A stretch of 64,000 nucleotides of DNA from Spirochaetia bacterium (lineage in GTDB: Bacteria; Spirochaetota; Spirochaetia; DSM-27196; Salinispiraceae), in contig JBBRCZ010000008.1 in NCBI GenBank assembly GCA_038204425.1, positions 74,270-138,269 of the forward strand. Direction: 5' to 3'. A program made the position numbers. Numbering within the stretch: position 1 is the first letter of the stretch; each line of letters starts with the position of its first letter. Below are positions 48,001-57,000 of the stretch, piece by piece.

Positions 48001-51000
48001 AAGTTTGTCGCCTTCCATCGATCCTGAACGGTCGAGTACAATAGCAACGTTAATGATTGGTCGTTGCACGCTGGTCAGCTCTTGACCGACCAAGCCAACT
48101 TTGAGGTATACTTTCTGAGCTGGACCGGCCAAGACTTGCGCTTGATCGAGTCCAATATCCAGCTTGACCGCTTGAGCGGATGCCAAAGCAAGTGAGCCAA
48201 ACAAAAAAACCAAGACGAAAATGCTCATGCCTAAACGATTACGGTTAGTCATAGTGTTCATAATATCCTCCTTATAAGGAAAACGCTATCTTCCTAAGCA
48301 TAGCCGCTTACGTGAGAAATGAGGTCAAACTAGCGTAAGTCTTTTGTAAAAGCATTGTAAAGTTTTTCGCTTAAAATAGCTCTTGACTTCTTGCAAGCGA
48401 AAAAGCAGACTTGGCCTTATGGACGATCTCACACTGTTGCAGGGTGTTTCACTTTTTTCTCGCTTGGATCTGCGCCACTTAAAGGCAATTCTCAAAGCAT
48501 GCACCAAAAGGGTATACGAAAAAGACGCACTTTTGGTAGAACAAGGCAATCCCGGCATTGGTTTGTTTATTATCCTCGATGGAGAAGTTCGCATTCAAAA
48601 GATTCTTGCCAATCAAAAATCAGTGACTATCGCCAACAATGGCCCCGGTGACGTAATTGGAGAAATGAGCGTACTTGATGGCGCACTGCGAACAGCGAGC
48701 GTCATTGCCGAAAAAAAGACAAGCTGTTTGGTTCTCTCAGCTTGGAGCTTTAAATCTTTGTTAGAAACTCACCCCGAAGTTGCGCTTGGAATTTTGCCCG
48801 TAGTAGTACAACGCTTTCGCGAAACCAACCACGCGCTCTTGGAACTATCACTTAAATTGGAACACACAAGCGCTGACGCTGTGCCTTGATTGCTGTCTTG
48901 GGCGCAAACGGGTATACTACTCGGATGATCGACGCGCACCGTTCTCTGATTCAATCCATAAAACAACAGGCTGAGCTAGCTCAAGATTTTGTACAGCAGG
49001 TACGACGTCATTTGCACACCAATCCAGAACTCTCTTTTGAAGAAAAAGAAACCTCTGCATTTATTGCCTCCAAACTCGATTTGCTTGGTATTGACTATAC
49101 TGATCATATCGGTGGTTACGGTATACGAGCCTTGGTCAAAGGAACCGGCAGCGGTTTTAGAACAACAAGCGCCAGCAGTTTTGAGGCAGCAAGTGCCTGC
49201 GCTGCATTGCGCGCCGATATGGATGCTCTACCCATCAATGAAAAGACTGGCCTAGACTTTGCATCCCAAAAGCCAGGCATTATGCATGCCTGCGGTCACG
49301 ACATGCATAGTTCTATGTTATTGGGAGCAGCTAAGATCTTGCAAGAGCTGCGCCACTTATTTGCTGGTACCATTATGTTAGTTTTCCAACCTGCCGAGGA
49401 AAAAGTTCCTGGTGGTGCTAAGACCATGCTCGACGATGGGCTTTTTGATACTAGGGTACCCGACAGTATCGTTGGGCAGCACATCAACCCTCAGCTGGAG
49501 GCTGGCCTAGTAGGATTTTGCAGCGGCCTTTTTATGGCAAGTGTAGACGACTACAAAATCACTATTAAGGGCAAAGGCGGACACGGAGCCAGTCCCCACC
49601 TTTGTGTTGATCCAGTTTTTGTGGCCGCCCAAGTGATTACGGCTTGTCAGAGCTTTGTTAGTCGCCGCTCTAACCCACTACAGCCCAATGTCTTAACCTT
49701 TGGCAAAGTGCTCGCTGACGGTGCCTTTAACATCATTCCCGACGAGGTGTATCTCGAATGCACGTTTCGCACCTTTAACGAAGCCTGGCGTCAAGAGATC
49801 GCGCATGAGCTACCACGTTGTATCAAGCAACTGTGCCAAGCCTTGGGCGCCAACGCCGAAGTTGAGCTGCTCAACGGCTATCCGGCAGTGTTTAATCATC
49901 TCGAGCTGACTGAAAAAATGCGTGCCAAAGCGGTGGATTTTTTGGGTGCCCAACGAGTCGTAGATCTTCCAGCAGTTATGTGGGCCGAAGACTTTGCCTA
50001 CTATGGCACGCAAACCAAGGCCTGCTTTTACAACATTGGCACCGCAAATCAGGCTAAGGGCTGGACCAGCCCACTGCATAGCCCCACCATGATACCCGAC
50101 GAGTCAGTCCTGACGGATGGCGTGGGACTCTTGGCCTGGCTTGGCTTAAGCCAGTTGGAGCTCTAAGCGCATGAATACCAGTCAAGACAAAGCACTTATA
50201 ATTCAGAGCGACAGAACCTTGCTCTTGGATGTCCACGCAAATGATGCAGAAGAAGCCCGCCGCGCAATTGGCCCGTTTACCGAACTAGAAAAATCGCCCG
50301 AACATCTGCACACCTACCGCATCAGTCCTTTGTCGCTGTGGAACGCAGCAGCGGCTGGGCTCAAGCCAGAAGCAGTTTGCGTGGCACTTAGGGCCCACAG
50401 CCGCTACGAAGTCCCCAGTCACCTGGAACATGGCATAGCCGACACCATGGGACGCTTTGGACTCTTAGCGCTTAAAGCCTCTCCGATCGAAGGCATTTTG
50501 CTTTTGGTAGTCTATAAACTTGCTATTTATGCCCAGCTCAAAGCACAAAAAAAACTCGCCAACTGGCTGGACGTATCATTGGAAGATGACCTGCGCTTTT
50601 TGGCCCAACAAGAGCCAAACGATAAGCTCAAGCCAGAAGGCGTTTTTCGCGTCAAGATGCTCGACCGCGGCACACTCAAACAAGAGCTTATTAAACTTGG
50701 TTGGCCGGTCAAAGACGATGTGCCACTGATTGATGGCGACCCGTATGAGTTTACGCTAAATGACAACACGGTTTTGCGCCCTTATCAAAACGAATCTATA
50801 GAGTGCTTCTTGGGCGATGGTCGGCCCGGGCTAGGTTATGGCGCCATCGTTTTGCCATGCGGCTCGGGTAAAACCATAGTGGGCTTGGGTTTGATGGCCA
50901 AACTTCAAACCAATACTTTAATCCTGACGGTCAATATCGCTGCCGTCCACCAATGGATTAGAGAAATCCGATCTAGAACCGACATAAACCCCGATGACGT

Positions 51001-54000: not shown

Positions 54001-57000
54001 GAATAGCACTGGCAGCCTATGTTTTTAGAGCTTCAAAAAATAATTGTGACTGCAGACGTGCTTGCTCGTCAAACATAGGTCGACCGTTGATTACGGTACA
54101 AGCTGCTTGGCGGGCGCGTCGTAAGAAAACTGTCTGCTCCGGCACATAAACTATGTCATAGACAATTTCGTGGCCGCGATACTGATAGTGCTCAAGCGCA
54201 TCTTTGTTACTGTCCGGGCCCTGCATACCAAGGCTGGTAGTTTGTACAATTACGTGGCAGTAGTCCAAAAAGTCAGCATCATGGTAGTCGAGGTCATCCA
54301 GGCCTCTAGCCTCTATCATCTGAGGATACCACTTTAAAAAATCGTTGACCAAAACTTGAGCTCGCTCCAGACCTCGGTTGACAAGCAAGACTGAGAATCC
54401 ATGGCTCAAGAGAGACTGCACTATGGCCCTAGCCGCACCACCGGCTCCGAGCACCAGTGCCTTACGTTTTATACCCGGTCTCGACTCCAAAAGTAGCGCC
54501 AGTGGTGCAAAAAAGCCAGGCGCGTCAGTGTTGGTGCCATACCAAGACTTGCTGCGTGAAACCAAGGTATTGCAGGCCCCAATCTCCCTAACTAGTTCGT
54601 CTTCAACAGTGAGATAGGCTCTGACCGCTTCTTTGTGAGGAATGGTTACACTAAGCCCGGCAATAGCCAGCTCGCTGGCCAGTTGAAAAAAAGACGCCAG
54701 ATCGTCAACCATAAACGGCACATAAACCGCATCAACTTGCTCTGCATCAAAGCGGCTGTTGTGGAAGGCTGGCGAACGGCTATGCATAACAGGGTTTCCG
54801 ATAATGCCAAAAACTTTGGTTGCGGCGCCTATCTGCGCAAATCTAAAGCCTTGTGCCAAAAGCGCCGGATCCATATGCCCTGGGGCTGCAGCCTGCCCCG
54901 GCACTTGCTGCGACGACGTGTAGGTCCACAATGACCCAAGTTTGCTTGACAGTATACGACTGGGCACACCAAAGGCCCCCATGCCAAGTACCACAAAACG
55001 ACGTCCATGTTTTCGTAATTGGGCTGTTGTTTTGACCAAAAGCAAGAGATCTGCCACACCTCGGCAGGTACAAGCAAACTTGGCAATCACAGGATCTTGA
55101 GATGAAGCATCACTAATGGTAGTGCTATAAAGAGCCTCAACTTGTTCCAAAAGATCTGCCGGGGTGCCAGCAAAGTTGTGCCGCGATCTAATGATGGTAC
55201 AAGCACACGATCTGACAAACGTTTCTAGCTCGCCAAAGTCCTTACCAGCCTCAAGATCCACGTAGGCCAATCCAGCTGCTTTGGCACCGCCGGCACAAAG
55301 CTGATCAACCGTACGGTGGATTAACTGTCGGCGTTCGTCCTCGCCATAGGCCCAAGAACCACCATCTTCGGCAAGACGCAGAGTCAAGATGGCTTTCATC
55401 TGATAGTCGTCACGCAGACTGGCCAAAAAAGGCACGATTAAGCCAAACTGATCTTGTTTGAGCCGATCAACGCGCAGCTCAACCAGCTGAACAAACTCTT
55501 TGTTGGCAAGAAATGCGGCACGGTCTTCTTCAATTGTAGAAGCGGTCAAGCACAGACAAATCACTCCACTACCCCCTAAAAATCCGCTCGTCTCAAATAC
55601 AAGTCATCAAGTTTGCCAGCTGTAAAATACAGAAGCAATTCTATCGGCCAGCCACGTTCTGGCAGACGGTAGCGGACTAAGGTGTCGTTGGCGGCATACG
55701 GTGTTCCCAAGCGTCGCAGGGCTTCTTCGCGGGATATGTTCATCTCAAGACCAAGGATTGGCCCGCGATGCCGTTTATCAATCCTAATCTGCCAAATTCT
55801 ATCTTGCCACAGATAGAGATAGCTGTGATCCGGATAGTAGAAAACCACCGTGTCCTGAAAAGCTTCAGTCCCGCGTTGGACAGATATTTCTTTGGGTGCC
55901 CCAAGTTCCTCAATGACCTGTTGTATACGATAGCCGATTTTGTCCACCAAACTATCCTGCCAAGGTCCAAAATCCGACCCTGGAAACTCGGCTTGGCGTT
56001 GCACTTCCAAAACGGTTTGCGCCCTAAGGACAGGCAAACCAAGACATAAGAACAGCACAGAGCAACAAGAGATTGAGACTCTTAACCATCGGTTATGAAC
56101 GACTTGGATCATAGGGTAGGACGGCACCGTGTCTAAGATAGTCGCTAAATAAGTCAGGATCAACTGGCTTGGAGTAAAAATACCCTTGAATGTACTGACA
56201 GCCTTCGCTGTTAAGAATGTCGCGTTGTTGAGCGGTTTCCACACCCTCTGCCAAAGTCTCGATATGCAAGCTGCGTGCCATTGAAATTATAGCCCGTACG
56301 ATTTCTTGGTTTTGTACGTTGTCGGCCAGGTCATCAATAAAGGACTTGTCAATCTTGAGCGTGTCGATTGGCAACTTGCGCAAATAGTTGAGTGACGAAT
56401 AGCCAGTGCCAAAGTCATCGATCGAAAGCCGAATGCCCAAGTCTTTGAGCTGAAGCAACTTAACTACCGCTAGGTTGGGGTCACTCATGATGGCGCCTTC
56501 GGTAATCTCAAGTTTGACAAAGCGCCCTTCAATCTTGAGCGCGGCTAACATTTCAGCAATGTTTTGCACCAGTTCTTTTTCGTTAAATTGAATAGGAGAC
56601 AAGTTGACCGAAACAAAGAGGTCAAGAAAACCTTGTTTGTGCCATTCTTTTAGCTGCACCACCGACCTATACATAATCCAGCGCCCCAGGATGCGAATGT
56701 CTCCTGTTCGTTCTGCTATCGGGATAAATTGAGGCGGCGCTATCATACCCAGCTCCGGGTGTTTCCAACGGATGAGCGACTCGCAACCTTTGATGACGCC
56801 TTGTTGGTCTACAAAGGGTTGATAGACCATAAAGAAGTCCTTAAAACCATTTTGCGTTGCCATGCGCAACTCTTGTTCCAAGATAGTGATGCGATGGTAG
56901 GCCAAGCCCAAGGACTTGGCAAAACGCACCACCCGCTTGTTTTTTTGGGTGGCATAACGCAGGGCTATCTCTGCGTTGTTCATTAGCTCAGAAGAGCGCG

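Follow-up and report, generated by a model that had tools for sequence, protein, structure and literature searches.

Human TFIIH, a factor in DNA repair and transcription, contains a subunit, p52, that holds and activates the XPB helicase. The locus analyzed here lies in a 64,000-nucleotide stretch of DNA (the window) from a Spirochaetia bacterium, and it raises the question of whether a bacterial XPB can be encoded together with a partner of that kind. A first-pass annotation had proposed that it is, and we find support for this in a fold match to nearly the whole of p52 and in the recurrence of such partners beside XPB across phyla. We favor the reading that the partner is a p52-like regulatory subunit that senses single-stranded DNA, the two proteins forming a two-subunit machine, and consider it fairly probable.

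All features discussed below are on the forward strand. The two open reading frames assigned to the pair are indeed present, at 50171-51883 and 51880-54006, and their earlier conversion from contig to window coordinates is correct. The first encodes a 570-residue XPB (ERCC3/Rad25-type) SF2 helicase, whose identity holds: the NCBIfam model repair_heli_XPB (NF045503) gives 792 bits over residues 8-563, compared to a cut-off of 610, the Pfam matches are Helicase_C_3 (residues 9-131), ResIII, ERCC3_RAD25_C and Helicase_C, and the GSGKT, DEVH and RED-containing motifs are legible in the translation. The Helicase_C_3 match (E 6.6e-26; 50195-50563) is the XPB N-terminal domain, the expected docking site for the clutch domain of the partner. 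In the phylum, XPB is almost a core gene, being over the cut-off in 159 of 201 genomes.

The stop codon of XPB and the start codon of the partner meet in the ATGA at 51880-51883, which is the 4-nt overlap reported earlier, and a Shine-Dalgarno-like AAGGA, read directly from the sequence, lies at 51870-51874, 5 nt upstream of the ATG. With this signal (51870-51883), the partner is translationally coupled to XPB. The partner frame also extends upstream to an ATG at 51865, which gives 713 residues instead of the 708 obtained from 51880. A pattern scan finds a terminator-like hairpin across the partner stop codon (53995-54015), which counts for little, since hairpins in the region are no more numerous than in shuffles.

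We now turn our attention to the partner itself, the 708-residue product of 51880-54006. The searches behind its first assignment could be reproduced. Pfam Helicase_C_3 matches residues 374-462 with an E-value of 5.8e-5, under the cut-off; phmmer against the PDB gives five matches in total at E<=10, of which the best three are human p52 (E 0.0037-0.86, query 373-495 = p52 308-440); and the family again comprises 881 representatives at E<=1e-3. An independent profile of 82 members finds human p52 at E 5.2e-6, yeast Tfb2 at 3.6e-4 and the XPB N-terminal domain at 0.017, and 11 of its 12 PDB matches are p52, Tfb2 or XPB. Helicase_C_3 is matched at E<=0.01 by 62 of 70 members of the partner family, by 20 of them above the Pfam cut-off. 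The Pfam Tfb2 model has no match in the 708-residue protein at E<=1 and matches below threshold in 3 of the 70 close members and 2 of 18 distant ones. The protein also carries the precomputed label PF27388.

The likeness to p52 had been placed in some 150 residues, and this turns out to be too narrow. The confident AF2 model of the partner (pLDDT 88.8, pTM 0.85) can be aligned from residue 31 to residue 516 with almost the entire p52/Tfb2 chain, in the same order. In Foldseek, the best 22 matches are TFIIH chains of p52 length (289-461 residues), with a best E-value of 2.6e-11 over about 500 columns; 8ebt_D, 7o4i_2 and 6trs_A are among them and are p52/Tfb2, as named by the sequence searches against the PDB. 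The next unrelated protein is PafBC, at E 3.5e-4. VIA-align superimposes model residues 31-513 on p52 18-458, and 76-516 on p52 49-461, with Z 9.4-9.9.

Three parts can be distinguished by VIA-align within this region. Residues 31-367 (51970-52980) form an array of winged helices in the order of the N-terminal part of p52. The clutch domain, residues 368-458 (52981-53253), folds like the XPB N-terminal domain, and it aligns with residues 72-165 and 128-220 of human and yeast XPB, respectively, with Z 10.0-10.4 and rmsd 2.0-2.1 over 89-91 residues; Pfam and the family profile place it in the same way. Residues 459-516 (53254-53427) occupy the position of the C-terminal p8-binding module of p52, and the structural alignments extend to p52 residues 458-461, in 6trs_B to 492. 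By sequence profile, however, this last domain aligns with about residues 132-181 of XPB, and since it matches those as well as the p52 C-terminus, it is no more than a candidate counterpart of the p8-binding module.

A related protein family is found in Actinobacteria, where proteins with Helicase_C_3 and WYL domains are encoded directly upstream of XPB (e.g. P0272, Streptomyces purpureus). The homology to the spirochaete family is near full length (576 columns, hhalign probability 97.6%, E 4e-12), and these proteins also have a p52-like fold, a WYL end and XPB as genomic partner; the top structural match of the actinobacterial model is p52, at 1.2e-7. They differ in that their gene precedes XPB, opposite to the spirochaete order, that they are longer (about 710-940 residues), and that both Helicase_C_3 and WYL are over the Pfam thresholds. 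Their names, 'helicase C-terminal domain-containing' or 'helicase-associated domain-containing', are domain names, without a function among the sources listed.

With this second family at hand, one can ask if the p52 likeness is convergent or partial, such that an N-terminal region duplicated from XPB in bacteria was joined to unrelated winged helices, with no common origin with p52 and a TFIIH analogy that could mislead. The clutch and the next domain are in fact nearer in sequence to XPB (hhalign of the XPB 1-181 family profile against partner residues 365-518: probability 96.2%, E 2.5e-9) than to p52 (profile, 5.2e-6); residues 540-704 of the actinobacterial model align with XPB 72-336 at Z 14.5, while its alignments to p52 go no further than the clutch; and winged helices are common folds. 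Nevertheless, we give this scenario only a slim chance. The N-terminal array stands in p52 order in two distant bacterial families, the actinobacterial model matches 6tru_D, a crystal structure covering the N-terminal half of p52 (Z 8.4, 151 residues), and the sub-threshold Tfb2 matches occur in both close and distant members. According to an excerpt of PMC6422496, moreover, p52 itself has a clutch that folds like the XPB N-terminal domain.

The partner has a further domain that is absent from the first-pass annotation. Residues 620-700 (53737-53979) superimpose in VIA-align on the WYL domains of PafBC (Z 10.7 and 10.5), BrxR (10.2), DriD (10.0) and CapW (9.9), with rmsd 2.3-2.8 over 76-80 residues. 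Pfam WYL has no match in the partner, and none in 70 relatives at E<=0.01. Among the homologous partners from other phyla, 4 of 18 are over the Pfam WYL cut-off, as is P0272, and the hhalign alignment to the actinobacterial family extends through this region. Judged from the modelled fold and from the homology to WYL-positive partners, the C-terminus is a WYL domain. In the family consensus it ends in a conserved basic stretch, V.K...VRR.R. Only 8 residues follow the WYL domain in the partner, which leaves no WCX domain.

In PafBC, DriD and CapW, the WYL fold binds single-stranded DNA arising from DNA damage. On this ground we propose the partner as a single-stranded DNA sensor, and the likely mechanism shifts to that of a sensing subunit; a link to DNA damage, as for those sensors, is plausible. 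The same domain also calls to mind a stand-alone transcription regulator of the PafBC/DriD/CapW/BrxR type, which would recognize promoters with its winged helix and induce a damage response. In that case XPB would not be bound as a subunit, but would just be a gene under its control or next to it. Residues 64-149 are a canonical wHTH (Z about 10 against MarR-type and Rio2 N-terminal domains), upstream of the WYL fold as in those regulators; PafBC and CapW are in the Foldseek list (E 3.5e-4 to 1e-2); and some sources call the actinobacterial relatives 'DNA-binding protein'. We consider this option unlikely, as the p52/Tfb2 chains score some seven orders of magnitude better and are ordered over about 500 columns, and the partner has a p52-like body that holds a copy of the XPB N-terminal region, which is not reported for those regulators. 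In addition, class A WYL regulators are wHTH-WYL-WCX proteins (PMC12392091) and the partner is without WCX, and the translational coupling and the recurrence beside XPB also speak against this option.

That recurrence can be quantified. The family had been described as spirochaete-only, which is true of the narrow family and not of homologous partners, which occur in many phyla. XPB lies directly upstream of the partner in 13 of 19 fetched relatives, i.e. in 13 of 21 genomes of the same class. Across many phyla, 55 of 80 XPB loci have a second same-strand ORF matching the clutch profile within the fetched flanks (up to about 4.5 kb from XPB); the other 25 show no partner within these flanks, which are short in 7 of them. 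All 18 distant partners tested are over the Pfam Helicase_C_3 cut-off. Within the phylum, 127 of 201 genomes have at least two Helicase_C_3 matches, and 38 of the 165 match-bearing genomes have a single one, including all 24 of one family. Three small genomes of the same class show neither an XPB nor a partner match. The two genes are unlinked in one genus (5/5 genomes), in a genome of 1.1 Mb, and, within one family, in the six genomes for which both positions are listed on a single contig; such lineages retain both genes.

These counts bear on another option, namely an anti-phage defence system in which a helicase effector is paired with a WYL sensor, like the islands controlled by BrxR or CapW. 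WYL proteins are common alongside defence systems (PMC4012209, in excerpt), the BrxR and CapW structures are among the fold matches of the WYL domain, and XPB has weak PADLOC matches to the helicase PbeA (best E 3.3e-19). The partner, on the other hand, has no PADLOC match, XPB is near-core, both genes persist even in the 1.1-Mb genome, and the neighbors are housekeeping genes (aroDE, M20 peptidase), aroDE recurring in 15 related loci. A defence role is thus highly improbable.

One of the nearest known systems is the XPB-p52(-p8) part of TFIIH (human XPB/GTF2H4/GTF2H5, yeast Ssl2/Tfb2/Tfb5; PDB 6NMI, 8EBT, 7O4I, 6TRS), in which an XPB motor with its N-terminal domain is likewise combined with a non-enzymatic winged-helix partner having winged helices, clutch and small C-terminal module in the same order. 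Several differences should be pointed out. The spirochaete partner is 708 residues long against about 460 for p52 and has the additional WYL domain, the Pfam Tfb2 model stays below threshold, the bacterial genes are translationally coupled, and no counterpart of p8/Tfb5, the one further TFIIH subunit sought, is found in the genome, Pfam Tfb2_C and Tfb5 having no match at E<=1.

In TFIIH, as described in an excerpt of PMC6422496, the p52 clutch (residues 306-399) is folded like the XPB N-terminal domain, with which it pairs, and the p52 C-terminal domain-p8 dimer cradles RecA2. In our reading, XPB is the ATP-driven DNA translocase or helicase of the machine, and its partner is a bacterial homologue of p52/Tfb2. 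By analogy, the clutch that follows the winged-helix array would pair with the XPB N-terminal domain, and the small domain after it would rest on the second motor domain. XPB would be gripped by these contacts, which would also determine its ATPase activity. Through its WYL domain, the partner may sense single-stranded DNA, or else some other nucleic-acid ligand of negative charge, and may recruit or activate XPB at damaged or partly opened DNA.

Complex prediction lends weak support to physical binding. The ipSAE values are 0.58, 0.56 and 0.58, while the best of three controls gives 0.00; the runs share at least 93% of contacts, with a partner pLDDT of at least 75. Among solved complexes, 116 of 157 pass the ipSAE mark, and among mismatched pairs 2 of 215 do; these counts are only approximate here since our own alignments were used. 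Only 18 of the 157 pass with values up to 0.60, as do both passing mismatches. As a similar complex has already been solved, the pass may also come from model memory.

The same contact could serve a regulation of opposite sign. As an inhibitor or decoy mimicking the XPB N-terminal region, the partner would keep XPB inactive, or compete for its DNA or protein contacts, and would let it go only on a signal. The homology of partner residues 365-518 to XPB 1-181 fits this scenario, and so does the archaeal Bax1, which in an excerpt of the review PMC13024598 stimulates the XPB ATPase in one species but has a slight lowering effect in a second, so that XPB partners can act either way. Sequence does not decide the sign, and the homologous contact in TFIIH stimulates the ATPase (excerpt of PMC3353954, citing Coin 2007); inhibition seems to us improbable. 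The archaeal XPB-Bax1 helicase-nuclease is otherwise comparable as a prokaryotic XPB encoded with a dedicated partner that regulates it (same review). Bax1, itself a nuclease, binds to XPB at the thumb and HD2 regions, whereas the spirochaete partner mimics the XPB N-terminal domain and has no nuclease family or fold among the Pfam, NCBIfam, Foldseek and VIA-align matches listed.

Our literature search found no published description of a bacterial XPB with a p52-like partner, and a 2012 statement, in excerpt, has it that no p52 homologues had so far been identified in bacteria; on these two points rests the claim that this is the first partner for bacterial XPB. An XPB with a p52-like partner carrying a sensor-type domain provides a testable lead on the role of XPB in bacteria. 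Finally, two loci lie on archaeal-looking contigs, and together with the wide bacterial spread they are compatible with the earlier suggestion that the XPB-p52 pair is older than eukaryotic TFIIH.

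The two genes lie on the plus strand and together fill positions 50171-54006. The first, an ORF of 570 aa at 50171-51883, scores 792.1 bits against the NCBIfam model NF045503 (repair_heli_XPB; cut-off 610), with residues 8-563 covering model positions 1-547 of 548. Pfam places Helicase_C_3 at residues 9-131 (E 6.6e-26) and finds ResIII and ERCC3_RAD25_C too, and the SF2 motor motifs Walker A, DEVH and RED can be read in the translation. Judged by its sequence, this ORF is a full-length bacterial XPB, with the N-terminal XPB/Ssl2 domain and an intact SF2 motor. The second ORF, at 51880-54006, encodes the 708-aa partner. 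As the first-pass annotation had it, the genes overlap on one strand: the stop codon of XPB and the start codon of the partner share the ATGA at 51880-51883. An AAGGA stands 5 nt 5' of the partner's ATG, and an earlier ATG, at 51865, lies in the same open frame.

The function of bacterial XPB is termed 'more elusive' in a 2026 review (PMC13024598), the accessible part of which names Bax1 as the only prokaryotic XPB partner. A conserved, translationally coupled and p52-like subunit that carries a WYL domain, as described below, is a concrete candidate for such a partner, and with two proteins in hand the question of what bacterial XPB does becomes directly testable. A Bax1-like nuclease was also considered as a reading of the partner. 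No nuclease family or fold appears in any of the match lists, which is an absence from those lists and not an exclusion.

Directly 5' of XPB, at 48383-50166 on the same strand, are genes for a cNMP-binding protein (168 aa) and an M20 peptidase (426 aa). The spacing along this series is a 4-nt overlap followed by a 4-nt gap, and both genes may be on the XPB transcript. The M20 peptidase recurs 5' of XPB in only two of the loci fetched for comparison. On the other side, an aroD/aroE fusion gene (54017-55564, minus strand) is convergent with the pair and begins 10 nt past the partner's stop codon. It is a recurrent neighbour, found by tblastn in the flanks of 15 related loci, one of them titled Flexilinea, and this is probably plain synteny. 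A promoter and terminator scan of the region gave sites no more numerous than in shuffles.

We now turn to the partner itself, for which the first-pass annotation had claimed remote homology to the XPB-binding TFIIH subunit p52/Tfb2. The sequence evidence behind that claim could be repeated. Pfam again matches Helicase_C_3 at residues 374-462 (E 5.8e-5). In a phmmer search of the PDB, human p52 is the only relative at E≤0.9 (best E 0.0037), residues 373-495 of the query aligning with p52 308-440. The exhaustive search returns the same 881 representatives at E≤1e-3; a word-index search finds only 2 proteins, this method being too insensitive for the family, which is why the exhaustive search was used. 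A profile built from 82 independently chosen members retrieves human p52 (5.2e-6), yeast Tfb2 (3.6e-4) and the XPB N-terminal domain (0.017) from the PDB, and 11 of its 12 matches at E≤10 are p52, Tfb2 or XPB.

Curated families say less about the protein. The precomputed label PF27388.1 (TP_0021_N) is attached to it and to a second protein, P0003. The Pfam Tfb2 model (PF03849) gives no match in the partner at E≤1, and it gives sub-threshold matches in 3 of 70 relatives and 2 of 18 distant partners from other phyla. NCBIfam has no family for the partner, and none for five of the distant partners apart from a weak match to the XPB N-terminal domain.

The likeness is clearer in the structure. The AlphaFold2 model, computed from an 82-row alignment, has a pLDDT of 88.8 and a pTM of 0.85. 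When it is compared with the PDB by Foldseek, the top 22 targets are all chains of TFIIH-containing entries, 289-461 residues long, among which 8ebt_D, 7o4i_2 and 6trs_A are named p52/Tfb2. Their alignments are up to ~500 columns long, with 2.6e-11 as the best E; unrelated proteins begin with PafBC, at 3.5e-4. VIA-align places residues 31..513 on p52 18..458 and 76..516 on p52 49..461 (Z 9.4-9.9). Differences in how the domains are hinged or arranged bring the rmsd of these whole-body alignments to a high 16-21. Both programs find the winged-helix array in the order of p52, and by VIA-align residues 64-149 form a canonical winged helix. From these spans it follows that the likeness exceeds the ~150 of 708 residues to which the homology had been thought to be limited: the ordered structural match runs over nearly the full length of p52. 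The core of the earlier reading, an XPB encoded together with a p52/Tfb2-like partner, is thus supported by the gene coupling, the profiles and this nearly full-length fold match, and we regard a convergent origin of the p52 likeness as very unlikely.

Within this body, the clutch (partner residues 368-458) superimposes on the N-terminal domain of XPB (XPB 72-163) with Z 10.4 and an rmsd of 2.0 over 89 residues in VIA-align. Helicase_C_3 is detected at E≤0.01 in 62 of the 70 relatives scanned out of 81, and above the curated cut-off in 20 of the 70. A profile-profile comparison pairs partner residues 365-518 with XPB 1-181 (probability 96.2%, E 2.5e-9). By this match the clutch and the domain that follows it are, as far as sequence tells, a copy of the N-terminal region of XPB itself, in keeping with the description of the p52 clutch (306-399), which shares the fold of the XPB N-terminal domain (PMC6422496).

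For the domain after the clutch (459-516), the structural alignments extend to the C-terminus of p52, and in the profile-profile comparison the stretch aligns also with XPB 132-181. With the clutch and this domain copying the N-terminal region of XPB, residues 459-516 are only a possible counterpart of the p8-binding module of p52. In the genome, which is 95.6% complete, neither Tfb2_C nor Tfb5 (p8) gives any Pfam match at E≤1. We have also searched for a small p8-like gene beside the partners at three other loci (L060, L096 and L086), and the gaps at the last two hold unrelated-looking ORFs. These are actinobacterial and lie between partner and XPB: L096:3796-4374 (minus strand, 192 aa) and L086:3954-4481 (plus strand, 175 aa).

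The C-terminal part of the protein has no place in the earlier domain picture, which took in the p52-like part and missed a WYL domain at 620-700. In the predicted structure, this segment is an Sm-like beta-barrel preceded by a helix, the fold seen in PafBC, DriD, CapW and BrxR. VIA-align superimposes it on the WYL domains of PafBC (Z 10.7 and 10.5), BrxR (10.2), DriD (10.0) and CapW (9.9), with an rmsd of 2.3-2.8 over 76-80 residues. Pfam WYL (PF13280) gives no match in the partner at E≤1 and none in the 70 relatives at E≤0.01. It does exceed its threshold in homologous partners of other phyla, namely in 4 of 18 distant ones and in P0272, an 840-aa partner from Streptomyces purpureus, and the alignment of the spirochaete and actinobacterial families extends through the WYL domain. 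In the family consensus, a conserved basic stretch closes the WYL region; it is the only indication that the predicted domain may bind single-stranded DNA or another negatively charged ligand.

It is important to note that class A WYL regulators have the architecture wHTH-WYL-WCX, whereas the partner has no WCX domain and ends at residue 708, 8 residues past the WYL domain. That the partner is a free-standing WYL transcription factor seems unlikely to us. The sole Pfam-level WYL match of the genome is on another contig, in a 347-aa frame (G000:C14:68766-68972), and that protein is probably an ordinary WYL regulator. In the 2014 survey of WYL proteins (PMC4012209), XPB is absent from the main text; domain fusions are listed in its supplements.

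The contact between the two proteins was examined by complex prediction, using full-length XPB and partner residues 335-520, each with its own alignment. The ipSAE values are 0.58, 0.56 and 0.58, all three controls give 0.00, and the verdict is 'weak support'. Between runs, at least 93% of the contacts agree, and the pLDDT of the partner is at least 75. Among solved complexes 116 of 157 reach the mark, and among mismatched pairs 2 of 215; of those 157, only 18 reach it with values of at most 0.60, as do both of the passing mismatches. These calibration counts hold only roughly here as the alignments were self-made. Since XPB-p52 complexes have already been solved, the pass may show likeness, that is, a memory of TFIIH, and not binding.

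In TFIIH, as described in PMC6422496, the clutch and the XPB N-terminal domain pair via their beta-sheets, and the C-terminal module of p52 cradles the second motor domain together with p8. Contact with p52 stimulates the ATPase of XPB, according to PMC3353954. By analogy, the bacterial pair would work as TFIIH does at the clutch, with the clutch of the partner pairing with the XPB N-terminal domain. The WYL domain suggests where the two systems differ: the partner would sense single-stranded DNA, and would then bring XPB there or activate it there. A TFIIH-like clutch combined with a WYL domain thus makes an ssDNA-sensing subunit, one that brings or activates XPB, the most likely predicted role, with single-stranded DNA as the suggested signal for bacterial XPB. 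An inhibitor would make the same contact with XPB, and we consider this version improbable.

To see how widely the pair is kept, we consider first a sample of 201 genomes of the phylum. XPB is found above the cut-off in 159 of them and the partner, by a single-protein query, in 55. Pfam Helicase_C_3 has at least two matches in 127 genomes, one in 38 and none in 36. In one spirochaete family, all 24 genomes have XPB above the cut-off and a single Helicase_C_3 match each, so that this family may possess XPB without the partner, or with a partner too divergent to detect.

The partner is present in 21 genomes of the same class: XPB directly precedes it in 13 of them and is elsewhere in 7 (all five of one genus, a 1.1-Mb genome and one other) and on another contig in 1. 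The 1.1-Mb genome keeps the two genes ~380 kb apart (G102:C1:25140-27514 and G102:C1:406451-408223); its partner matches are split over frames, with TAG and TGA inside two of them. In a more distant family, the genes are hundreds of kilobases apart in the six genomes where both positions are on a single contig. Three small genomes of the class show no match for either XPB or the partner. The retention of both genes when unlinked, together with the lack of a match for either in these three, fits a shared function; the counts are not independent, the genomes being related to one another. A defence system, as another way to read such a pair, is a weak proposal that we find hard to credit: the partner has no PADLOC match, XPB comes close to being a core gene of the phylum, and housekeeping genes flank the pair.

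Outside the phylum the picture is broader than the first-pass annotation supposed. Via the XPB alignment, 80 XPB loci were fetched from a collection with one genome per species, and by record title they come from Spirochaetota, Actinomycetota, Chloroflexota, Planctomycetota, Gemmatimonadota, Hydrogenedentota, Sumerlaeota, Bacillota and two archaea. HMMs built from the family detect a second, same-strand ORF with a clutch domain in 55 of the 80. This ORF lies just downstream of XPB in 41 loci, often overlapping it, 1.7-2.5 kb downstream in 2, and upstream in 12, of which 11 are titled actinobacterial and one (L078) 'bacterium' only. In the other 25 loci no such ORF is detected, 7 of them having less than 1.6 kb of downstream flank. 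All 18 distant partners scanned are over the Pfam Helicase_C_3 threshold, and those from a Clostridia MAG, a deltaproteobacterial MAG, Streptomyces and Nocardioides are over that of WYL as well.

The actinobacterial branch is large. For P0272, relatives at E≤1e-5 number at least 3855 and go under the names 'helicase C-terminal domain-containing', 'helicase-associated domain-containing' or 'DNA-binding protein'; the precomputed Pfam labels are WYL and Helicase_C_3. Against the spirochaete family, an alignment of 27 actinobacterial partners gives a match 576 columns long, which begins near the N-terminus and takes in the WYL domain (probability 97.6%, E 4e-12). In the model of P0272 (pLDDT 81.7), the top Foldseek match is p52/Tfb2 (1.2e-7, ~560 columns), residues 540-704 superimpose on XPB 72-336 with Z 14.5, and residues 767-840 on WYL domains with Z 10-12. 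The spirochaete family PF27388 is thus one branch, a divergent one, of a bacterial family that is widespread and encoded beside XPB, and the view that it is confined to spirochaetes has to be given up. The databases label the partner's relatives by domain names only, and a search of the literature open without subscription returned no paper on a p52-like or WYL-bearing partner of bacterial XPB.

The existence of such a pair bears on the source of the TFIIH core. Tentatively, and as a possibility we would not put near even, the coupled pair can be seen as an ancient prokaryotic two-subunit DNA-opening machine from which the XPB-p52 translocase module of TFIIH descends. The pair is spread over many bacterial phyla and is also present on two archaeal-looking contigs, one titled Thorarchaeota. 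On this reading, single-stranded DNA would trigger the bacterial machine, whose task would be the opening or remodelling of DNA in a pathway of repair or transcription restart separate from UvrABC. Eukaryotes would have kept the winged-helix body and the clutch and gained p8, and the WYL sensor would have been replaced by protein-based recruitment (XPC, TFIIE).

The two archaeal-looking pairs, which bear on the origin of the XPB-p52 pair of TFIIH, are found in the syntenic stretches L079:4480-9620 and L075:4450-10486, one of the contigs being titled Thorarchaeota MAG and the other 'uncultured archaeon'. Both carry a bacterial-type XPB, 52% identical to the XPB of the window, and on the same strand, 1.7-2.5 kb downstream, a Helicase_C_3 protein of 574 or 584 aa that has no WYL domain by Pfam. 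By sequence, the partner on the Thorarchaeota-titled contig matches only XPB in the PDB (E 0.7). The surrounding genes, with two RIO kinases, an RFC-like AAA+ gene and a weak DUF2240 match, have an archaeal look.

Two further bins, L045 and L046, are titled Desulfovibrionaceae and Selenomonadaceae. Their XPB proteins are 53-55% identical to that of the window, and the spirochaete N-terminal profile finds their partners at E 2e-74 and 1e-24. Mis-binning of spirochaete DNA or recent transfer may account for these contigs.
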